The translations under genes were made by a program, and so were the position numbers. From Candidatus Proruminimicrobium quisquiliarum (lineage in GTDB: Bacteria; Elusimicrobiota; Endomicrobiia; Endomicrobiales; Endomicrobiaceae), in contig JAHDRN010000019.1 of assembly GCA_018433245.1 (NCBI GenBank), positions 3,622 through 67,621 on the forward strand: DNA of 64,000 nucleotides, given 5' to 3'. This document shows, in pieces, positions 9,289 through 20,099 of this stretch. A model generated the notes under the pieces. That model made no database searches, was not told the DNA's origin, and was given only the letters and a program-made list of their open reading frames with translations. Numbering within the stretch: the first letter of the stretch is position 1; each line of letters begins with the position of its first letter.

Positions 9289-11397
9289 ATGAAATTCAAA
9301 ACGCTGTTCATCCTTACGGTTATATTTTCGCTGGCCGCGCTGTCAGCCGTCATATTCATATCAAAACTGATTGACGAATTGCCGCCCATATCAAACCTTG
9401 AAAGTTTTAAACCGAGCGTAGTTACAAAAATTTACGATAAAGACGGAAATATAATTTCAGAGATGTTCATTGAACGCAGAGTATTGGTTCCTCTGAAAGA
9501 TACTCCGGCCGACTTGCAAAATGCTTTTATCGCAATTGAAGACAACGATTTTTATGAACACTGGGGCATATCTACAAAAGGCATTCTCAGAGCGTTTGTT
9601 ATCAATTTTTTAAAAGGAAAAGTATCTCAGGGCGGTTCTACAATAACCCAGCAGCTTGCAAAAACCATATTTTTGACATCCGAAAGGACAATAACAAGAA
9701 AAATTAAAGAAATGCTTTTAACCGTACAGTTGGAACACGAATATACGAAAGAAGAAATTCTGCAATTATATATAAACCAGATTTATTTCGGAGCAGGCGG
9801 ATACGGAGCCGAATCTGCCTGTAAAATATACTTCGGTAAATCCGTTAAAGACATAAACCTGGCCGAAGCGGCTTTAATCGCAGGCCTTCCTAAAGCGCCG
9901 AATTATTATTCTCCTTTAAAAAATCCGGAAATCGCAAAAAACAGAAGAGCCGTAGTTTTATCTCGTATGCGCGATTTGGGATTTATTACTAAAGAGCAGG
10001 AAGAAGAAGCAAACAATCAGCCTTTGCCGGATAAACGGCAATTGCCGGAACGCAGTTCCGGACATTATTTTATAGAATATCTGAGAATATTGCTTGAGCC
10101 GAAATACGGCACAAATGTTCTTCACAAAGAAGGCTTATCAATATATACCACTCTTGATTCCAAAATGCAGGCAGCAGCCGAAAAAGCGCTTTCGGAAAGC
10201 CTTGATAATTTTGATACTCAGCAGTCTGAATTTTTTAAAAAAGCTCAAATTGAACCTAAAAAAGTTCAGGGAGCCTTAATAGCAATAGATCCTAAAACCG
10301 GAGCAATCAGAGCAATGGTAGGCGGCCGCGATTTTAAAGAAACAAAATTCAACAGAGCCATACAGGCAAAAAGACAAGCCGGCTCTTCCTTTAAGCCGTT
10401 CCTTTATACGGCGGCTATAGACTCAAAAATCATGACTCCGGCCACAATTCTTGAAGATAAACCTATTGTCTACGCGTTTGACGGTAAAATGTGGAATATC
10501 GCTTCAAGAAATGTAAATTATGTTGAAGTGCTTGCCGAAAAAATGACTTCCGATGAATTGATTGATCCGATGAAAATATGGACTCCCGCCAATTACGGAG
10601 GAAAATTCAGAGGAGAAATGACGTTAAGAAGAGCTATAGCAAAATCGGTAAACATATGCGCAATTGAAACTATTGAAAAAGTAACTCCGTCAAAAGTTAT
10701 AGACTACGCCAGAATGATGGGCATAAAAAGCCCTCTTGTAAATTCTTTATCTCTTGCTTTGGGCTCAAGCGACGTAACGCTGCAGGAAATGGTCTCGGCG
10801 ATAGGAACTCTTGCATCGGGCGGCATTCAGACGGAACCTTATTTTATAACAAAAATAATTGATAAAGACGGGAAAATACTTGAAAATAACATCCCGAACG
10901 AAAAAGAAGTTTTAACTCCGCAAACGTCATACATTATGACAAATCTGTTGAAAGGCGTAGTTGAAAGAGGAAGCGGAATCAGGGCTAGAGAACTTGGAAG
11001 ACCGTGCGCAGGAAAAACCGGAACTTCAAACGACAGTATTGACGCGTGGTTTATAGGATATACTCCTCAATTAGCGGCAGGCGTTTGGGTAGGTTATGAC
11101 GACAGGACTTCTCTGGGAAAAAATGCGACAGGCGGAAACACGGCATGTCCGATATGGACGAGTTTTATGAAAAACGCTCTTGCCGGTTATCCGATTAGAG
11201 ATTTTGCGCAGCCTAAAGGAATTGAATGGGCATTGATAGATCCGGCCACAGGACTTCTTGCATTAAGCAAAACTCCCGGCGCTTATCTTGAATCTTTCCT
11301 TGAAGGAACAGCGCCGAAAAGTTATTCAATTATGAAAGATTCGTCAAAAAAAGCCGCCGAAGAAGAAGACGACTTAATAAACGAAGACGGATTCTAA
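9289..11397 (+). CDS. mrcA: class A penicillin-binding protein 1A (transglycosylase/transpeptidase)
   Basis: GT51 motifs EDNDFYEHWG and GGSTITQQ. Transpeptidase motifs SSFKP and KTGTS. N-terminal TM anchor. Confidence 0.92.
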   Translation: MKFKTLFILTVIFSLAALSAVIFISKLIDELPPISNLESFKPSVVTKIYDKDGNIISEMFIERRVLVPLKDTPADLQNAFIAIEDNDFYEHWGISTKGILRAFVINFLKGKVSQGGSTITQQLAKTIFLTSERTITRKIKEMLLTVQLEHEYTKEEILQLYINQIYFGAGGYGAESACKIYFGKSVKDINLAEAALIAGLPKAPNYYSPLKNPEIAKNRRAVVLSRMRDLGFITKEQEEEANNQPLPDKRQLPERSSGHYFIEYLRILLEPKYGTNVLHKEGLSIYTTLDSKMQAAAEKALSESLDNFDTQQSEFFKKAQIEPKKVQGALIAIDPKTGAIRAMVGGRDFKETKFNRAIQAKRQAGSSFKPFLYTAAIDSKIMTPATILEDKPIVYAFDGKMWNIASRNVNYVEVLAEKMTSDELIDPMKIWTPANYGGKFRGEMTLRRAIAKSVNICAIETIEKVTPSKVIDYARMMGIKSPLVNSLSLALGSSDVTLQEMVSAIGTLASGGIQTEPYFITKIIDKDGKILENNIPNEKEVLTPQTSYIMTNLLKGVVERGSGIRARELGRPCAGKTGTSNDSIDAWFIGYTPQLAAGVWVGYDDRTSLGKNATGGNTACPIWTSFMKNALAGYPIRDFAQPKGIEWALIDPATGLLALSKTPGAYLESFLEGTAPKSYSIMKDSSKKAAEEEDDLINEDGF

Positions 11398-11400
11398 CAA

Positions 11401-11715
11401 CAACAAAAGCTCGGAAGTTTAGAAGCTGGGAAGTTTGGCAAAAACAAATACAATCAAAAAATCAATTCACAGAATCATTAATGTTTTGTCGGTAGTGCCA
11501 CGTTAAGCACTTTTATGAATGAAGTATTTTTTACCGTAAAAACTTCATATTTCTTAAATTTGAGGATTTTTTTGAGTTGTTGCTGTTATAGACTTCACAG
11601 TTGTTAGCGAATTGAAGAATTTTCAAATCGCAGTGTACGTAAGTAAAGCGGAGCGAACGGTACATCAGATTTGAAAATTCAAAAATGCAGCAACAAATGT
11701 GAAGGTGATATAAAA
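11401..11715. repeat. composite intergenic repeat element (longest copy of a dispersed family)
   Basis: Sub-blocks recur elsewhere: 11413-11443 resembles 20181-20203; 11497-11524 resembles 57091-57118; 11563-11586 resembles 57199-57222; 11629-11699 resembles 24051-24128. Also holds a perfect 13 bp inverted repeat, GAATTTTCAAATC (11617-11629) with GATTTGAAAATTC (11668-11680). Confidence 0.6.
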
Positions 11716-13452
11716 TTAGGTTCTTTTGAAAAATTTTTCCAGTTCTTCTCTCGTAATCTTATACATCGTAGGTCTTCCGTGCGGGCAGGTGTAAGGCATC
11801 TTACATTTAAATATATCTCTGACCAATTGCAAAGCTTGTTTATCAAGCATAATATCTCCTGCTTTTATGCTGCTTTTACAGGCGATTTTTATTATAGTTT
11901 CCTGCATTTCAGGAACCGCCGCGTTTTTTTCTTCTTTTAAAAATTCAATCACGCCGTTTATTATTTCAATCAAATTAACGTTTCCGCCCAATAATGCCGG
12001 ATAGGACGTCAGCCTGAAAGTATTGGAACCGAATTCTTCCAAAGCAAATCCCAATTTGTTAAATACCGCCAGAGAACTTTTTAAAACTACGCTTTGCCAT
12101 GCCTGCAGTTCAAAAACATCAGCAATCAAAAGCTGCTGCACCGATAATTTATTATTTTGAATTTCATCCGTAAACATTTCGTATTTTACTCTTTCCTGAG
12201 CCGCGTGCTGGTCTATTATATAACACACGTTTTGTTTTTCGGCGATTATGTACATATTGAACATCTGCCCTGCAAACTTATATTCATCAGACTGCAAAAG
12301 CTCTTCCTGTACGCCGGAATGAAAATTGCTTGAAGAATATAAATTTTTATAATCTGAAACGGATACATCTCTTTTATAATCATAACTTCTGTTGTATTGA
12401 TATCCGGCGTTTTCCGTAAGTTGTTTTCCGGGTTCCGCAGATTTAACTTCAATTATGCCGCCCGGACCGTCATTTTCAACGGCCCCTTTAATAAACGTAT
12501 AAAACAATTCATACATTTCATTTTCTCCGGAAAATTTAATTTCTCTTTTCGCCGGATGTACGTTTATGTCAATATCGGACGGGTCTGATTTTAAAAACAT
12601 AATTATTCCGGGATGTCTTCCTATCGGAGTTGACTGTTTATAAGCCTGATATATTGAATGAATAAGCCATTTCGGATAATTAACGCATCTTGAATTTACA
12701 AAAAGATACTGGGCGTTTTTATGAGACAGCGAATTGTCTCTTGTCGTAATAAACGCTTCAATTCCTATTTTAGGATGGTTAAAACTGATATATTTCATTT
12801 TTTTTGACAGATCTTTTCCCAAAATATCTTCTATGCGTTTTATTTTAGAATCGGTTTTGCGGTATTGGGCGAATATTTTTCCGTCCGTTATGACCGTAAA
12901 ATCAACGTCGTTTCTGACAAGAGCGATTTCATCTATGCAATTTATGATTTTTGCTTTTTCGGTTGTGTCGCTTTTTAAAAATTTTTGTCTTGCCGGAGTA
13001 TTAAAAAATAAATTTTTAACTTCAACAGCCGTTCCGCCAGAACCGGCCCAAGGCTGCAAATCGGACTGTTTAGAACCTTCCATAGACAAATGCCAGCCCG
13101 AATCCGAATTTTTCTTCTGCGTTTTTATATCAAATATTGATATCGCCGCTATGGAAGGAAGAGCTTCCCCCCTGAATCCTAAAGTCAGCGTTTTTGATAA
13201 ATCTTCAAAAACCGAAATTTTACTGGTGGCATGCCTCTGCACGGAAAGAAGCAAATCATCTTTATCCATGCCGCATCCGTTGTCGCTTACTCTTATTAAT
13301 TTTTTTCCTGATTTTTCTATTTCAACCGATATGTTTGAGGCGCCGGCGTCCAAAGCGTTTTCAACCAGTTCTTTTACGACGTTCAAAGGTCTTTCTACGA
13401 CCTCTCCGGCTGAAATTTTATTAATTGTTTTATCGTCTAAAACTTTTATCAT
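11716..13452 (-). CDS. mutL: DNA mismatch repair protein MutL
   Basis: GHKL ATPase motifs INKISAGEVVERP, ELVENALDAG and DNGCGM, plus a C-terminal dimerisation region. Start placed at ATG 13450-13452 (MIKVLDDKT), which overlaps the pilZ stop as ATGA. Confidence 0.93.
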   Translation of the reverse strand: MIKVLDDKTINKISAGEVVERPLNVVKELVENALDAGASNISVEIEKSGKKLIRVSDNGCGMDKDDLLLSVQRHATSKISVFEDLSKTLTLGFRGEALPSIAAISIFDIKTQKKNSDSGWHLSMEGSKQSDLQPWAGSGGTAVEVKNLFFNTPARQKFLKSDTTEKAKIINCIDEIALVRNDVDFTVITDGKIFAQYRKTDSKIKRIEDILGKDLSKKMKYISFNHPKIGIEAFITTRDNSLSHKNAQYLFVNSRCVNYPKWLIHSIYQAYKQSTPIGRHPGIIMFLKSDPSDIDINVHPAKREIKFSGENEMYELFYTFIKGAVENDGPGGIIEVKSAEPGKQLTENAGYQYNRSYDYKRDVSVSDYKNLYSSSNFHSGVQEELLQSDEYKFAGQMFNMYIIAEKQNVCYIIDQHAAQERVKYEMFTDEIQNNKLSVQQLLIADVFELQAWQSVVLKSSLAVFNKLGFALEEFGSNTFRLTSYPALLGGNVNLIEIINGVIEFLKEEKNAAVPEMQETIIKIACKSSIKAGDIMLDKQALQLVRDIFKCKMPYTCPHGRPTMYKITREELEKFFKRT

Positions 13453-13865
13453 ATTTTTTGTTTTTTGTCGCACAGAACGTAATAGCTGCATTCTTTTTTA
13501 CAGATATCGGTCGCTCCCAGGGCTATTTTTGTTTCGCAGTCGTTAAAATCTATCGCCATTCTGTTTATTTTTTTTGAATCAAGGGTGTCTATTTCTAAAA
13601 ATTCAAGACCTACTTCCCACATTGAATTTTTTAGTTTTGATCTTACAACCTTGCCGAGAATCTGTTTTGTTTCCATTTTGGGGATGTTAATCATAAGCGA
13701 AACTTCAGCGCTTATCGGTATGTCCGCATACATCAATAAAAGCATTCCGCCCGCCGATAAATTAATGATTATGCCGGGGAAAGTCTCTTTTTCCGTACCT
13801 ATTGAAACAGCGTGGCCGAAATCTTTTATTACAGGAAATCTCGGATGTCTTCTTTTATTTAACAT
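13449..13865 (-). CDS. PilZ domain protein with a Cys-rich C-terminal tail
   Basis: RRHPR (RxxxR) and NLSAGG (D/NxSxxG) c-di-GMP-binding motifs at canonical spacing. Tail is C-x14-C-x3-C-x5-C. Confidence 0.85.
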   Translation of the reverse strand: MLNKRRHPRFPVIKDFGHAVSIGTEKETFPGIIINLSAGGMLLLMYADIPISAEVSLMINIPKMETKQILGKVVRSKLKNSMWEVGLEFLEIDTLDSKKINRMAIDFNDCETKIALGATDICKKECSYYVLCDKKQKI

Positions 13866-13881
13866 ACTCTTTCTCCCAAAA

Positions 13882-16467
13882 TTATTTTTTATATTTTTCT
13901 TTCCAGTCCGATAATAATTTTAACGCTTCAACGGGTTTGAGATTATCAACATCCAGCTTTCTTAATTCTATCAAAATTTCAGGTTCTATTGAAGTAAAAA
14001 GATTAGGCTGTATATCCTGTTCAAGTTTTGAAAATTTTTTATTGATATTTTTTTCAAGTCCGTCAAGAATCTGATAAGCCCTTTGTATGACTTTATGCGG
14101 AACCCCCGCAAGACGGGCGACGTGTATTCCGTAAGATTTATCGGCGGATCCTTCAACGATTTTATGCAGAAAAATCACATTGCCGTCCCATTCCTTAACC
14201 GACACGCTGGCATTAATTATTCCGCTGCCTTCGGAAGCAAGAGACGTCAGTTCAAAATAATGAGTCGCAAACAGAACTTTTGCGCCTTTGTTGTATCTGC
14301 TGCCGGTATCGGAAAAAAACTCCAATATCGCCCACGCTATGGACATTCCGTCATAAGTGGACGTTCCTCTTCCCACTTCGTCAAGTATAATTAAGCTTTT
14401 ATCCGTATATCTGTTTAAAATATTGGCCGTTTCCGTCATTTCAACCATAAACGTTGATTCGCCTGCGGCAAGATTATCTCCGGCGCCTATTCTTGTAAAT
14501 ATTTTATCAACTATTCCTATTACCGCTTCGGAACACGGAACAAAAGAACCTATCTGCGCCATAATTACAATCAATGCCGTCTGTCTGAGATAAGTTGATT
14601 TACCGGACATATTGGGGCCGGTCAGTATCATTATTCTTTTATCGCTGTCGTTTAAATCAATGTCGTTTGCCACAAAATCGCCGAATTTTAAAATTTGTTC
14701 TATAACCGGATGTCTTGCATTTTTTAAAACAAGTTCTTTGCCGTACGTCATTTTAGGACAAACATAATTATTTTTAACGGCATTGAAAGCAAAAGACATA
14801 TAAATATCAAGTTCGGCGATCATTGACGAAATATTAAGTATTACAGCCGAATATTCCGCAAGTTCCTGTCTTAAACATACGTAAAGTTCGGTTTCAAGTT
14901 TTATCGTTTTATCCTGGGCTGAAATAATTTTTTCTTCCAGTATTTTTAATTCCTGCGTTATGTATCTTTCGGAATTCGTCAAAGTCTGCTTTCTTATGTA
15001 ATGAGCCGGCACCGACGATATGTTTGATTTTGTAACGTCAATATAATAACCGAATACGGACGTATATCCTATTTTCAAATTATTTATTCCGGTTGCCTGT
15101 CTTTCTTTTGTTTCAATTTCGGATATATATTTCTTAGCGTCTTTGCCGAGCAGTCTTAATTCGTCAAGTTCGGGCGAAACTCCCGTTTTTATAACGTTGC
15201 CGTCTTTAAGCATAACAGGGGCTTCCTGCTCTATATGAGATTCTATTTTTTCTATAACTTCTTTTACGGGTTCAACGACCGGATTTTCGCAATAGCCTAT
15301 TTCTTTTAATTTTTCAAAAATCGCGGTTGCGCCGATAAGAGAATCTTTTAACGCCAGAAGTTCTTTCGGATTTGCGGAACCGCTTATTATTCTTGCGGCT
15401 ATTCTGTCCAAATCGGCTATTGATTTTAAAATTTCGGACAATTCGTTACGCGCCGTTTCATTTTCAATGAATATTTTTATTTTATTCTGTCTGTCTTCTA
15501 TCTTTTTTATTTCAAGAAGCGGCTTTATTATCCAGTTTTTTACAAGTCTTGCCCCCATAGGAGTTATCGTAGCGTCAAGCACCGATACAAGAGAACCGTC
15601 CTGTTTGAGAGAAGTTGACGATCTTAAAATTTCAAGATTTTTAATCGCGACGCCGTCCAAAAGCATATAATCGCCTGTTTCCAAAAACCTGATATTGTTT
15701 AAAATCGGCAGAGTCTGCGGCTGGTTGTCCTGCACGTACATAAATATCGCGCCGACAGCCGATATAACGCCGGGCTTATCGGATATGTTAAAATGATTAA
15801 GAGAAGATATCTTTAATATTTTCTTTATTAAATTGCCGCAATATACGGCGTCCGAGCATATATCGTTTACGGTTGAGGACGTAATATTGGATTTTGAAAG
15901 AATCTTTTTTAAATTTTCGTCTTTTGCCAGCGACTGGGCTATAATAATTTCTCCGGGTTTGTATTTTATAATTTCATTTTCCAAATTCTGAATATCCGTC
16001 TCGTAAGCGAAAAAATCGCCCGTTGAAATATCTGCCGCCGCTACCGCGGCTACGGAAGAATCTCCGCCGGCAAAAAATACCGACATAAGATAATTGTTCA
16101 TTTTTGAATCAAGAAGATTATCTTCCAAAAGAGTTCCGGGAGTAATGACTTTAACAACTCCTCTTTTCACGATGCCTTTTGTCGCGCCCGGTTCTTCCAA
16201 TTGTTCGCAAATTGCTATTTTCAAACCGGCTTTTATCAATTTTCTTATATAATTTCCAGCGGAATGATACGGCACTCCGCACATCGGAACGGTTTGTCTT
16301 TTTGTCAGAACAACCTCTAAAATCGGAGACGCTTTTACGGCGTCTTCGCCGAACATTTCATAAAAATCGCCGAGTCTGAAAAACAGAATAATATCGGGAT
16401 ATTTGGCTTTTATAGCCGTATACTGCTGCATCAGCGGCGTTAATTGTCCGTCATCTTTATTTGTCAT
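13882..16467 (-). CDS. mutS: DNA mismatch repair protein MutS
   Basis: N-terminus TPLMQQY..KAKYPD..FFRLGDFYEMF, Walker A GPNMSGKST, 861 aa. Confidence 0.95.
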   Translation of the reverse strand: MTNKDDGQLTPLMQQYTAIKAKYPDIILFFRLGDFYEMFGEDAVKASPILEVVLTKRQTVPMCGVPYHSAGNYIRKLIKAGLKIAICEQLEEPGATKGIVKRGVVKVITPGTLLEDNLLDSKMNNYLMSVFFAGGDSSVAAVAAADISTGDFFAYETDIQNLENEIIKYKPGEIIIAQSLAKDENLKKILSKSNITSSTVNDICSDAVYCGNLIKKILKISSLNHFNISDKPGVISAVGAIFMYVQDNQPQTLPILNNIRFLETGDYMLLDGVAIKNLEILRSSTSLKQDGSLVSVLDATITPMGARLVKNWIIKPLLEIKKIEDRQNKIKIFIENETARNELSEILKSIADLDRIAARIISGSANPKELLALKDSLIGATAIFEKLKEIGYCENPVVEPVKEVIEKIESHIEQEAPVMLKDGNVIKTGVSPELDELRLLGKDAKKYISEIETKERQATGINNLKIGYTSVFGYYIDVTKSNISSVPAHYIRKQTLTNSERYITQELKILEEKIISAQDKTIKLETELYVCLRQELAEYSAVILNISSMIAELDIYMSFAFNAVKNNYVCPKMTYGKELVLKNARHPVIEQILKFGDFVANDIDLNDSDKRIMILTGPNMSGKSTYLRQTALIVIMAQIGSFVPCSEAVIGIVDKIFTRIGAGDNLAAGESTFMVEMTETANILNRYTDKSLIILDEVGRGTSTYDGMSIAWAILEFFSDTGSRYNKGAKVLFATHYFELTSLASEGSGIINASVSVKEWDGNVIFLHKIVEGSADKSYGIHVARLAGVPHKVIQRAYQILDGLEKNINKKFSKLEQDIQPNLFTSIEPEILIELRKLDVDNLKPVEALKLLSDWKEKYKK

Positions 16468-16473
16468 AAAATC

Positions 16474-17067
16474 TTATTCCCAAAAAAATATAGCTCTTTC
16501 TATTTTATCAATATATTTCAATATTGAGTATATTTTATCTATTTTTTTTACGTATTGTTTTGTTTCATTAAACGGCATTTGTTCAAAATCATACTCAACG
16601 ATAGGATTCATCTGTCTCCACTGCGTAACATTGCCGAGCCCCGCGTTATAAGAGGCAAGTATTAAATTCATATTTCCTTTAAACATCGTATTTAATATTT
16701 TATAATAAAAAACGCCGAACATTATGTTTATTTCAGGATTTAAAAGCATCTCTTTTTTAAAATTTTCCATCTGTAAATATCCCGCAATCTGTCTGCCTGT
16801 GGCCGGCATAATCTGCATAAGCCCGACTGCTCCCTTATTTGACACGGCATCCGGCGCAAAATCCGATTCAACCTTTATAATGGCTTTTACCAAAAGAGGA
16901 TCCACGTTATATTCAGCCGCGTATTTATTTATAAATTCCGAATATTTCCATGTTTTGTTGATTTTAACAAAAACATACAAAATTATAAAAAATAAAACGG
17001 CCGTTATCGCAAGCAATAATTTATTTTTATTAATTTTCACGCATATCTCCGGACATGCTGTTTGCAA
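16474..17067 (-). CDS. lytic transglycosylase (SLT domain), membrane anchored
   Basis: The SLT catalytic region ES...GLMQIMP..., here VESDFAPDAVSNKGAVGLMQIMPATG...YNAG, plus an N-terminal TM helix. The annotated start overlaps the miaB 3' end by 38 nt. Confidence 0.85.
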   Translation of the reverse strand: MQTACPEICVKINKNKLLLAITAVLFFIILYVFVKINKTWKYSEFINKYAAEYNVDPLLVKAIIKVESDFAPDAVSNKGAVGLMQIMPATGRQIAGYLQMENFKKEMLLNPEINIMFGVFYYKILNTMFKGNMNLILASYNAGLGNVTQWRQMNPIVEYDFEQMPFNETKQYVKKIDKIYSILKYIDKIERAIFFWE

Positions 17068-18283
17068 AAACTTTCGTTATTTTTACCGTAACGGTTTTTC
17101 CCGTCAGATCTTTAGCGGAATTAAAAAAAATTTTTATATTCTGGCTGTTTCTTGATTCGCATATTCCGTTTGCATAAGCGTCCACCAAAACTTTTTCCTC
17201 GGAATTTATATAATATCCGTTTAATTCTTTTGATATTTCATTTGAGCGTTCAAGCAAAACGGAATGCCTTTCTTTTTTTACCGCCGTTGAAACGTCGTCT
17301 TTAAGTTTATACGCCGATGTGTTAGGCCTTGGCGAATATTTAAAAATAAACAAACCTCCGAATTTTAAATCTTCAGCCGCGCGCAGAGTTTCTTTAAAAT
17401 CGTCGTCTGTCTCGCCCGGAAAACCTATTATAATGTCGCTTGTAATATTTATCCGCGGTATTTTATTTCTTATTTTTTCAACGAGCAGTTTATATTTGCC
17501 GTATGTGTATTTTCTGTTCATTCTGTTTAAAACGTAATCCGACGCCGACTGCATGGGCAGATGAATATATTTGCATATTTTATCGTTTGCGGCTATTTCG
17601 TCTATTAATTCGTCCGGAAAATCTTTCGGATGGTTGGTCATAAACCTGATTCTTTCAAGTCCGTTTATTAGCGAAACTTCTTTTAAAAGACCGGTAAAAT
17701 CAATATTTTTATAATTATAAGAATTTACATTCTGTCCTAAAAGTATTATTTCTTTTGCGCCGCGTTTAACGCACTTTTCGGTTTCCGCCAATATTTCGTC
17801 AACGCTCACGCTTTGTTCCGGACCTCTTACGTAAGGAACTATGCAGTAAGAGCAAAAATTTTCGCATCCCCTCATTATCGTAACGTATTCAAAGACTCCT
17901 GATTTCCTTGTTGCCTTACGAACTCCGCCTGTTTCTATGAATTTTGAAACGACGCCTGCAAATTTATCAAGTTCCTTTGCGCCCAAAACGAAATCAAGAA
18001 ATTTAAATCTGTTTTTTATGCTTTTGCCGGCATATTGCGCCATACATCCGACAACGCCGGCAATAAGTCTCGGATTTTTATCTTTTTGTTCCGAAAGCCG
18101 TCCCAGAAAAGAATACGCCTTATGTTCGGCGGAAAATCTTACCGAACATGTGTTAAGTATCACCAGATCGGCCTGTAAAACATCGTCCGCGTATTCCAAA
18201 CCCTCCGATAACAAATAATCAGTTATTTTATCGGAATCGTTAACGTTCATCTGGCAACCGATCGTTTCAACAAAAAATTTCAT
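17030..18283 (-). CDS. miaB: tRNA methylthiotransferase, MiaB family
   Basis: N-terminal GCQMNVNDSD, radical SAM CENFCSYC, C-terminal TRAM-like region. Confidence 0.85.
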   Translation of the reverse strand: MKFFVETIGCQMNVNDSDKITDYLLSEGLEYADDVLQADLVILNTCSVRFSAEHKAYSFLGRLSEQKDKNPRLIAGVVGCMAQYAGKSIKNRFKFLDFVLGAKELDKFAGVVSKFIETGGVRKATRKSGVFEYVTIMRGCENFCSYCIVPYVRGPEQSVSVDEILAETEKCVKRGAKEIILLGQNVNSYNYKNIDFTGLLKEVSLINGLERIRFMTNHPKDFPDELIDEIAANDKICKYIHLPMQSASDYVLNRMNRKYTYGKYKLLVEKIRNKIPRINITSDIIIGFPGETDDDFKETLRAAEDLKFGGLFIFKYSPRPNTSAYKLKDDVSTAVKKERHSVLLERSNEISKELNGYYINSEEKVLVDAYANGICESRNSQNIKIFFNSAKDLTGKTVTVKITKVFANSMSGDMREN

Positions 18284-19162
18284 TTATTCCGGCTCATTTG
18301 CTATTTTTTCAAGATACTGTCCGTAATCTGAATTCAAAAGTTTGGTGTTTTCAAGAAGCTGTTGTTTATTTATAAAACCTTTTCTGTAAGCTATCTCTTC
18401 AATGCAGCCTATCATTATTCCCTGTCTTTCTTCTATCGTTTTTATAAACATTGACGAATCTATAAGCGAATTATACGTTCCGGCGTCAAGCCATGAAAAA
18501 CCCCTGCCGAATAATTCAACGTGGAGTTTTCCCCGTTTTAAATATTCGTTGTTGATATCGGTTATTTCAAGTTCGCCTCTTGCGGAAGGTTTTACGTTTT
18601 TTGCGATTTTTATAACTTCGTTATCGTAAAAATAAAGACCGGGAACCGCCCAGTTTGATTTTGGTTCTTTAGGTTTTTCAACTATTCTTACGGCTTTTTT
18701 ATTTGAATCAAGTTCAACTATTCCGTGTCTGTGCGGATCGGGAACGTAATAAGCGAAAATCGTGGCTCCGTCGTTTTTTTCGGCGGCTCTTGTGACTATG
18801 TGCGAAAGTCCGTGTCCGTAAAATATGTTATCGCCCAAAACAAGAGAAGCGTTATCGTCTCCTATAAATTCTTCGCCGAGTATAAACGCCTCGGCAAGCC
18901 CGTTAGGATGTTCCTGTATTTTATAAGATATGTTTAAGCCGAGTCTTTTTCCGTCAGAAAACAATTCTTCAAATTTCGGCAAAGCGTCAGGCGTTGAAAT
19001 TATAAGCACGTCTTTTATTCCCGCAAGCATAAGAACCGACAAAGGATAATATATCATCGGTTTGTTGTAAACCGGAAGCAGCTGTTTTGAAACGACATAC
19101 GTTAAAGGATAAAGGCGCGTAGCTTTTCCGCCGGCAAGAATAATACCTTTTGTTTTTTTCAT
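18284..19162 (-). CDS. rfbA: glucose-1-phosphate thymidylyltransferase
   Basis: [16 protein letters not shown] signature and full-length similarity to RmlA (292 aa). Confidence 0.92.
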
Positions 19163-19172
19163 TTTATTCCCC

Positions 19173-20099
19173 TTATAAACTTTTGAAATATTTTATCGTT
19201 TCACGCAATCCGTCTTCCAACTGAACATCCGGAAGCCATTTTAATATTTTTTTTGCCTTTGTTATATCGGGACGCCTCATTTTCGGATCGTCCTGAGGAA
19301 GTTCTTTATAAATTATTTTTGATTTGCTTGCCGTTAATTTTATGATTATTTCCGCAAGTTCTTTTAACGTTATTTCGTTCGGATTTCCGATATTGACGGG
19401 ATATTTGTAATCGGACATCAGCAATTTATAAACGCCTTTTACCAAATCCGATACAAAACAAAAACTTCTCGTCTGCCTTCCGCTGCCGAATACGGTAACC
19501 GGCCGGCCGGCAAGAGCCTGCGATATAAATTCAGGTATGGCCCTTCCGTCTTTTTCATTCATTCCGGGCCCGTAAGTATTAAAAATTCTCACTATTCGCG
19601 TCTTAACTCCGTAATCTCTCAAATAACACATAACGGCCGCTTCCGAAAATCTTTTTGCCTCGTCATAAACGCTTCTGATCCCTATTGAATTTACGTTTCC
19701 CCAGTATTCTTCAGGCTGCGGATTTACAAGAGGGTCTCCGTATACTTCGCTTGTAGAAGCGAATAAAAATTTTGCTTTTTTAAGTCTTGCCAGTTCCAAA
19801 AGATTTAAAGTTCCCAAAGAGCCTGTTTTTAAAGTTTCAAGCGGATATTTTATGTAGTCTTTGGGGCTTGCGGGAGACGCAAAATTCAATACGGCGTCTA
19901 TTTTTCCGGGTATTTTTATATTTTTTGATATGTCGGCTTTGATAAATTTGAATTTTTTATTTTTAAGAAGATGTTTTATGTTTTCTTTTTTGCCGGTAAT
20001 AAAATTGTCAACGGCAATAACTTTATGATTTTTTGAGATAAAAAAATCACACAAATGCGAACCTAAAAAACCAGCTCCTCCGGCTATCAAAACGTTCAT
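19173..20099 (-). CDS. UDP-glucuronate decarboxylase (UDP-xylose synthase)-type SDR
   Basis: [23 protein letters not shown] and RIFNTYGP; collinear with UXS-type enzymes. Confidence 0.85.

Follow-up and report, generated by a model that had tools for sequence, protein, structure and literature searches.

A PilZ gene between mutS and mutL

We analysed a stretch of 64,000 nucleotides (nt) from Candidatus Proruminimicrobium quisquiliarum (Elusimicrobiota, family Endomicrobiaceae; assembly GCA_018433245.1, contig JAHDRN010000019.1, positions 3,622 to 67,621), hereafter the window, in which a small gene for a PilZ-domain protein lies between the mismatch repair genes mutS and mutL. The protein, which we call PilZ-Cys4, carries two motifs for cyclic di-GMP (c-di-GMP), a second messenger, and a C-terminal tail with four cysteines. 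An earlier reading of the sequence alone, the original prediction, had described a PilZ protein of 138 amino acids (aa) between mutS and mutL, marked by the motifs RRHPR and NLSAGG and by a tail of four Cys at the C-terminus, starting 16 nt past the mutS stop and ending in a TGA that overlaps the mutL ATG as ATGA. The open reading frame (ORF), the Pfam match and the alignment confirmed the protein, and both junctions were found in the sequence as described. The features of the locus, with the evidence for each, are:

13449..13865, minus strand: pilZ-Cys4 gene, encoding a 138-aa single-domain PilZ protein with a four-Cys C-terminal tail (ORF, PF07238, AlphaFold2 and Foldseek fold, orthologues)
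13839..13853, minus strand: RRHPR codons (residues 5-9), the RxxxR motif for c-di-GMP (sequence; R5 and R9 invariant in 61 members)
13746..13763, minus strand: NLSAGG codons (residues 35-40), the (D/N)xSxxG motif for c-di-GMP (S37 and G40 invariant; position 35 is D or N)
13470..13538, minus strand: codons of the Cys4 tail, C110-x11-C122-x3-C126-x5-C132, followed by a basic C-x-K-x-x-K end (presumed metal site, Zn or Fe-S; Cys invariant in alignments)
13866..13881, minus strand: mutS-pilZ spacer of 16 nt with a GGAG-type ribosome-binding site (sequence; GGAG kept within the genus)
13449..13452, minus strand: ATGA, the pilZ stop (TGA, 13451-13449) overlapping the mutL start (ATG, 13452-13450)
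13882..16467, minus strand: mutS, 861 aa (NF003810, 996 bits; TIGR01070, 920 bits)
11716..13452, minus strand: mutL, 578 aa, endonuclease type with DQHA..E and CPHGRP motifs (TIGR00585, 492 bits; motifs from the translation)
16474..17067, minus strand: slt, an SLT-domain lytic transglycosylase-like gene (Pfam SLT, E = 7e-30; 38-nt overlap with the miaB 3' end)
17030..18283, minus strand: miaB-type radical-SAM tRNA methylthiotransferase gene (Pfam UPF0004 and Radical_SAM), the upstream anchor of the conserved cluster
18284-19162, minus strand: RmlA-like nucleotidyl transferase gene (stop abuts the miaB ATG, 0-nt gap)
19173-20099, minus strand: RmlB-like dehydratase gene, co-directional with the RmlA-like gene
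9289..11397, plus strand: class-A penicillin-binding protein gene, convergent (ORF and translation); the minus-strand string ends after mutL

The minus-strand string thus reads RmlB-like gene, RmlA-like gene, miaB, slt, mutS, pilZ, mutL, with the convergent penicillin-binding protein gene beyond it. The spacer at 13866-13881 has the sequence TTTTGGGAGAAAGAGT, with the ribosome-binding site inside it, and the ATGA overlap (gap -4) is kept in four further genomes of the genus. No terminator between mutS, pilZ and mutL was found in a promoter and terminator scan of 11300-18800, in which site counts were at chance level, and neither a riboswitch nor any other Rfam family was detected in 11000-19500. 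In this genome pilZ is very probably co-transcribed with mutS and mutL. An upstream mutL ATG at 13491 was considered as the conserved start and rejected, because orthologous MutL proteins align from MIKVLD and mutL of other genera starts after the pilZ stop; the same alignment supports the choice, made in the original prediction, of the ATG within ATGA as the most plausible mutL start. The genome's miaA lies on another contig (C21), so that the mutL-miaA junction is broken in this genus and the pilZ-mutL junction is kept.

The match to the PilZ family (PF07238) spans residues 3-103 and profile positions 1-99 of 102, at 47.6 bits (cut-off 22.5; E = 2.3e-12). AlphaFold2 modelled the protein (predicted local distance difference test score, pLDDT, 79; predicted template modelling score, pTM, 0.71) as a beta-barrel with strands in residues 13-91 and a long helix at 94-115. 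The 46 best Foldseek matches in the PDB were all PilZ-domain proteins or PilZ-containing cellulose synthases, most of them solved with c-di-GMP; the best were 5vx6 (MotI), 5y6g (YcgR PilZ domain), 4xrn and 4rt0 (Alg44), 7mie (PlzA), 5kgo (MrkH) and 5xly (MapZ-CheR1), and BcsA was matched too. In an alignment of 61 sequences with 26% mean identity the invariant residues were R5, R9, S37, G40, C110, C122, C126 and C132, exactly the c-di-GMP motifs and the four cysteines. The original prediction depended on the ligand-binding residues being kept in homologues, and R5, R9, S37 and G40 were not lost in any of these sequences. All the marks of a PilZ protein, in sequence and in fold, are therefore present (profile match, RxxxR, (D/N)xSxxG, barrel and C-terminal helix). 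The protein does not belong with the YcgR/MotI-type flagellar brakes, because the PilZN (YcgR_N) domain is missing: the chain has only 138 aa and PilZ begins at residue 3. Some Joint Genome Institute records automatically label distant relatives 'YcgR', and PilZN is absent all the same. By sequence and modelled fold, the pilZ-Cys4 product is a genuine single-domain PilZ protein and a predicted c-di-GMP receptor with intact ligand motifs.

The four-Cys tail sets the family apart. About 100 of the 167 representative clusters described below have the spacing C-x(9-14)-C-x3-C-x5-C behind the PilZ domain. Of the lysines at the end of the tail, K134 is nearly invariant in the 61-sequence alignment, and K134 and K137 are both invariant among 19 closer sequences. 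When either the tail alone or the family profile was searched, no Pfam match to the tail was found at E <= 10 and no PDB sequence match covered it. AlphaFold2 modelled the tail with low confidence (pLDDT 50-70). We presume it to be a metal-binding knuckle that would hold Zn or an Fe-S cluster. Repair glycosylases of the EndoIII/MutY type have a C-terminal [4Fe-4S] loop with the spacing C-x6-C-x2-C-x5-C, and we mention this as a lead only: both are C-terminal four-Cys clusters with a last spacing of x5, and PilZ-Cys4 is encoded among DNA repair genes, but the spacings differ (C-x6-C-x2-C-x5-C against C-x11-C-x3-C-x5-C) and neither the sequences nor the folds match. One family, f12 (L096 6035-6418, L098 5989-6372), has a PilZ gene between mutS and mutL that has lost the Cys4 tail entirely, with RxxxR, DxSxxG and the position kept. 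The tail is therefore not needed for whatever holds the gene there.

A profile of the family (E <= 1e-10) detected PilZ-Cys4 in 233 of 301 Elusimicrobiota genomes, and in 203 of the 234 that are of high quality, nearly always as one copy; it was absent from all 44 genomes of one genus, g2, whose genomes measure 0.8-1.4 Mb. A profile search against 1.84 billion representatives gave 167 clusters at E <= 1e-10. All named members come from Elusimicrobiota; close homologues, from metagenome-assembled genomes (MAGs) of Endomicrobiaceae, Endomicrobiia or Elusimicrobia, are named just "PilZ domain-containing protein", and literature searches found no published description of a family combining PilZ with the four-Cys tail. 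From these sequence comparisons we conclude that PilZ with Cys4 is a previously undescribed subfamily, apparently confined to Elusimicrobiota as far as names exist. An orthologue is present in 28 of 41 relatives examined, and the window's own genome has four GGDEF matches. GGDEF cyclases occur in all 28 relatives with PilZ-Cys4, and none of the seven without a GGDEF match has PilZ-Cys4, counts that come from related genomes and not from independent samples. This co-occurrence fits a c-di-GMP-dependent function.

Two gene orders across Elusimicrobiota

Gene neighbourhoods were compared among the relatives, using the 1.5-kb flanks of the best 20 pilZ loci (19 genomes, the window's own being counted twice), and across the phylum, using about 12 kb around 57 further matches in which MiaB, SLT, MutS, MutL, MiaA and HflX were mapped. 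At 18 of the best 20 loci mutS lies upstream and mutL downstream, and at the other two only mutL is present. Two arrangements cover almost all loci surveyed. Form A, miaB-(slt)-mutS-pilZ-mutL-miaA-hflX, occurs in 22 GTDB families including that of the window (f1-f3, f5-f16, f19, f21, f22, f25, f26, f31 and f34 in our numbering; f16 shows pilZ-mutL-miaA only). Form B, miaB-pilZ-miaA-hflX, occurs in about eight families (f20, f24, f27-f30, f33, and f32, which shows miaB-pilZ only) and in one genome of f21, G050; a MAG protein, P0017, represents a further form B, its gene overlapping miaB by 4 nt and miaA by 16 nt. In both forms, across the phylum, miaB lies upstream of pilZ. Many form-A genomes carry slt in the same place as the window, after miaB and before mutS, and form-B loci lack it; mutL, miaA and hflX are co-directional and contiguous in relatives (for example L042, L066-L069, L085, L088, L089, L094, L096 and L098).

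The original prediction had left it to a survey of relatives to decide whether the order mutS-pilZ-mutL is peculiar to this genome. It is not: the order is deeply conserved and, as it recurs in 22 GTDB families, no chance event. By sequence and neighbourhood, the window's gene has orthologues, mostly in single copy, across the greater part of Elusimicrobiota, and it is a resident of the miaB-(slt)-mutS-pilZ-mutL-miaA-hflX string and hence of the counterpart of the E. coli mutL-miaA-hfq-hflX superoperon. The association with mutS and mutL is not constant wherever PilZ-Cys4 occurs, holding in 22 families and failing in about eight.

In form B, mutS and mutL are both present elsewhere in 26 of 27 genomes. 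In 21 of these 26 the two genes share a strand and are no more than about 170 nt apart, and neither a PilZ gene nor slt nor miaB is found in their vicinity. The remaining genome, G050, is 78% complete and has miaB-pilZ-miaA, and neither mutS nor mutL was found in it. In a form-B genome of family f24 (G220, L102 3040-4206), two features separate mutS from mutL: a gene whose 388-aa product is a repeat protein with a hydrophobic N-terminus, and an ORF of 149 aa on the opposite strand. Horizontal replacement of mutS-mutL in form B was considered, and identity levels gave no sign of foreign origin: form-B MutS and MutL are 41-43% and 32-35% identical to the window's proteins, about the same as in form-A genomes of other classes, in a comparison made without an outgroup.

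The PilZ tree follows family structure and gathers the main form-B group in a single clade with 100/95 support. Neither f32 nor G050 belongs to it, G050 being nested in a form-A clade, and the form-B label needs two changes (bootstrap range 2-3). A MiaB tree built from these loci has form A on either side of its deepest (midpoint) split, and the form-A families f25, f26, f31 and f34 are interleaved with form-B families. From the split in the MiaB tree and the two form-B changes in the PilZ tree, form A is probably ancestral, and form B has possibly been derived more than once. Both are single-gene trees, midpoint-rooted and partly unresolved, and the polarity thus remains an inference. Both forms conserve I100, A104, D106 and D109 in the helix and the four Cys, K134 and K137 in the tail, which argues that PilZ-Cys4 probably has the same function in the two contexts.

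Candidate partners of PilZ-Cys4

The original prediction drew from the tight start/stop coupling both co-expression and a possible physical or regulatory link to mismatch repair. The first part is very probable as regards co-transcription with mutS and mutL. The second is weakened, as the coupling is not specific to mismatch repair: in form B the distances from pilZ to miaB and miaA are as short (often -4 to -17 nt, as in the large sister group f20, f24, f27-f30 and f33) as those to mutS and mutL in form A, with pilZ overlapping miaB typically by 4 nt and often miaA too. The window itself shows such packing elsewhere: the RmlA-like sugar-nucleotide gene ends right at the miaB start (0-nt gap), and the ends of miaB and slt share 38 nt. 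Since coupling also ties clearly unrelated genes, it is alone no argument for a functional link, and in compact genomes it should be treated as weak evidence of one.

We hold, with a little more confidence than doubt, that PilZ-Cys4 is a true receptor for c-di-GMP whose tail binds metal, that it is encoded in an ancient superoperon of fidelity and housekeeping genes and co-expressed with MutL in this genome, and that its partner is not given by gene order. The gene seems, on balance, to be anchored to the superoperon as a whole and not to mismatch repair specifically, because form B keeps pilZ without mutS and mutL and couples it equally tightly. Termination and reinitiation at the ATGA would couple translation of pilZ to that of mutL, and PilZ and MutL would be made together. 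In the mechanism we propose, c-di-GMP from the genome's own GGDEF cyclases would bind the RxxxR and (D/N)xSxxG motifs and would switch a surface made up of the barrel, the conserved helix (I100-A104-D106-D109) and the Cys4 tail, which could then bind a partner protein or nucleic acid. At some point, probably several times, mutS and mutL would have left the string and pilZ would have stayed between miaB and miaA. Because it is kept there with the same conserved residues, the partner would be something present in both arrangements, such as MutL in trans, a translation-fidelity component (MiaB, MiaA or HflX) or nucleic acid.

Some of the evidence weighs against this reading. Where mutS has been displaced in form A, pilZ remains immediately upstream of mutL (G024, G041, G006), as a specific PilZ-MutL partnership would predict; the order is rpmE-prfA-prmC-pilZ-mutL in G024 and sugar isomerase-like gene-pilZ-mutL-miaA in G041, and in G284 about 2 kb lie between mutS and pilZ. 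That one order persists in 22 families is in its own right a strong signal from the neighbourhood. Which arrangement came first, moreover, is inferred from the midpoint-rooted, partly unresolved single-gene trees described above.

What the first two of these points favour is a dedicated modulator of mismatch repair, which we consider unlikely, if the likeliest of the alternatives. Here c-di-GMP-loaded PilZ-Cys4 would bind MutL or MutS and tune the MutL endonuclease or the assembly of MutS with MutL, doing so in trans in form B, and the rate of mutation or recombination would follow the c-di-GMP signal. Several observations agree with it: pilZ is flanked by the two repair genes in 22 families, its ATGA overlap with mutL is kept within the genus, and it stays upstream of mutL when mutS is displaced; the 26 of 27 form-B genomes with mutS and mutL provide a partner in trans. 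There is also a precedent, in that E. coli Hfq, which is encoded in the mutL superoperon, reportedly down-regulates MutS (Tsui et al. 1997 are said to have described this). Against it stand the approximately eight families that have pilZ flanked by miaB and miaA and a mutS-mutL pair elsewhere that lacks it, the incomplete genome G050 with miaB-pilZ-miaA and no mutS or mutL found, the lineages that have lost pilZ and retain intact mutS and mutL, the lack of fusions among the family matches, and a coupling that is not specific to mismatch repair genes.

Some of these lines of evidence can be given more fully. Co-loss of mismatch repair with PilZ was considered and rejected, as genomes without PilZ-Cys4 keep mutS and mutL, directly adjacent to each other in some of them (G019, G008 and G026). 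Because these genomes retain mutS and mutL, and because miaB is near-universal, presence and absence cannot single out a partner. In G018 (L024 2660-3139) the slot between mutS and mutL is occupied by a gene for a 159-aa protein with a hydrophobic N-terminus instead of PilZ, and in G005 (L023 2223-2731) by a stretch of 510 nt that lacks any substantial ORF and may be a decayed gene. Around pilZ, G118 and G235 showed open frames of 755 and 777 aa, which were examined as candidate PilZ-MutL fusions and which the ORF listing resolved into separate genes with stop codons; among the family matches there was no fusion of PilZ with MutL or MutS, the long members P0071, P0077 and P0087 being TPR fusions. 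Literature searches turned up no published link from PilZ to mismatch repair, in agreement with the original prediction, which knew of no established link between c-di-GMP signalling and mismatch repair; the links of c-di-GMP to DNA repair that were found are transcriptional. A c-di-GMP link to MutL is conceivable, if doubtful, and no better supported than other targets.

A bolder version, that PilZ-Cys4 is an ancestral phylum-wide switch by which c-di-GMP gates MutL and MutS, with a redox input that the four-Cys metal site might add, we regard as rather unlikely. Were it true, Elusimicrobiota would raise or lower their rates of mutation and homeologous recombination in response to a second messenger, and the repair operon itself would encode a programmed mutator control that depends on a signal.

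About equally unlikely, in our estimation, is that pilZ is an operon passenger with an unrelated target, its product being a c-di-GMP effector of a general kind and the housekeeping operon no more than a source of steady expression, in parallel to enterobacterial hfq. One variant would be a nucleic-acid-binding regulator acting through the basic Cys4 knuckle, a possibility given that MrkH and PlzA, also PilZ proteins, are nucleic-acid binders; the lysines K134 and K137 at the end of the tail, invariant in the 19 closer sequences, agree with this. The E. coli mutL-miaA-hfq-hflX superoperon carries the small regulator Hfq among genes without known physical interplay, and is known to group functionally unrelated genes (PMC12249760). 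In the window the string likewise holds rml-like and slt genes, and PilZ-Cys4 is portable, occurring beside giant surface-protein genes and in TPR fusions (below). Of 151 Elusimicrobiota genomes searched for Hfq (PF17209) itself, 149 gave no match, and only one match was above the cut-off; the mutL-miaA-hflX string, which in Proteobacteria includes hfq, is kept nevertheless. Retention at one position through the depth of the phylum would, however, be unusual for a mere passenger, and family f12 keeps that position though its Cys4 tail is lost, so the tail is not what retains the gene.

Least probable of the alternatives is an effector of translation fidelity or tRNA modification, in which c-di-GMP, perhaps with redox input through a Cys4 Fe-S cluster, would act on MiaB, MiaA or HflX to tune ms2i6A37 tRNA modification or ribosome rescue. 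In its favour, pilZ in either form has miaB upstream and miaA-hflX downstream throughout the phylum, the form-B gene overlaps miaB (typically by 4 nt) and often miaA, and MiaB is itself an Fe-S enzyme (Pfam UPF0004 and Radical_SAM). Against it, miaA and hflX are out of the operon in the window's genus (miaA on contig C21), 2.6 kb of mutS plus slt separate miaB from pilZ in form A, the near-universal miaB makes distribution uninformative, and neither fusions nor interactions support it.

On the reading we favour, that of a receptor resident in the superoperon, the locus would be of interest for several reasons. Work on c-di-GMP has mostly concerned the change from motile to biofilm life and back, and a long-kept, mostly single-copy PilZ gene among genes of genome and translation fidelity (those for MiaB, MutS, MutL, MiaA and HflX) points to an unstudied c-di-GMP output. 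The new, compact subfamily has an invariant Cys4 site, and one small protein may thereby join nucleotide and metal or redox signals. Nature supplies one arrangement in which mutS and mutL flank pilZ and another in which they do not, a ready comparison for finding the partner.

Comparison with known systems and further PilZ genes

Stand-alone PilZ adaptors (MapZ/PA4608 with CheR1, the PilZ domains of MotI/DgrA and YcgR, PlzA and MrkH) have in common with PilZ-Cys4 the fold and the RxxxR and (D/N)xSxxG motifs. By analogy with them, PilZ-Cys4 would be expected to bind a partner in a ligand-dependent manner. Unlike them, PilZ-Cys4 has no PilZN/YcgR_N domain and has the invariant C-x11-C-x3-C-x5-C tail without a Pfam or PDB counterpart. 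Its gene sits in a mismatch repair and tRNA modification operon, whereas those of the known adaptors are found in motility, exopolysaccharide or pilus loci, and its family, unlike theirs, is apparently confined to Elusimicrobiota.

The Elusimicrobiota string resembles the E. coli superoperon in that mutL, miaA and hflX are strung together, with the gene of a small regulatory protein embedded among them and the neighbourhood deeply conserved although the products are not known to interact physically. It differs in that PilZ stands upstream of mutL, where E. coli has Hfq between miaA and hflX, and in that mutS and miaB are included. The parallel between PilZ in one string and Hfq in the other is positional only.

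Links between c-di-GMP and DNA repair are known in the activation of tag by VpsR and VpsT in Vibrio cholerae and in the effector NadR of Salmonella (PMC12421817). Like the proposed link between PilZ and repair, these tie c-di-GMP level to DNA repair capacity. In contrast, they act through transcription factors on base-excision repair or NAD supply, they involve neither PilZ nor MutS or MutL, and they do not lie inside a repair operon.

PilZ-Cys4 also occurs outside the string. In three proteins of 577-697 aa from Elusimicrobia MAGs (P0071, P0077 and P0087), a PilZ-Cys4 module lies N-terminal to long TPR-repeat regions. A paralogous subgroup of 168-201 aa, about 21-27% identical (L035 5001-5606, L037 5001-5528 and L038 5001-5507), is always encoded between a UPF0164-family gene and giant surface-protein genes of 2,000 to over 5,000 aa, and recalls the small pilZ genes reported beside giant genes in Omnitrophota (bioRxiv 10.1101/2023.11.21.568195). 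Its occurrence beside such genes and its fusion to TPR repeats mark PilZ-Cys4 as a portable module.

The window's own genome has two tandem PilZ-like genes without the Cys tail on contig C31 (L022 1483-1824 and 2043-2369), encoding proteins of 113 and 108 aa upstream of a folD-like gene. The first of the two is the genome's only other PilZ match by profile search.

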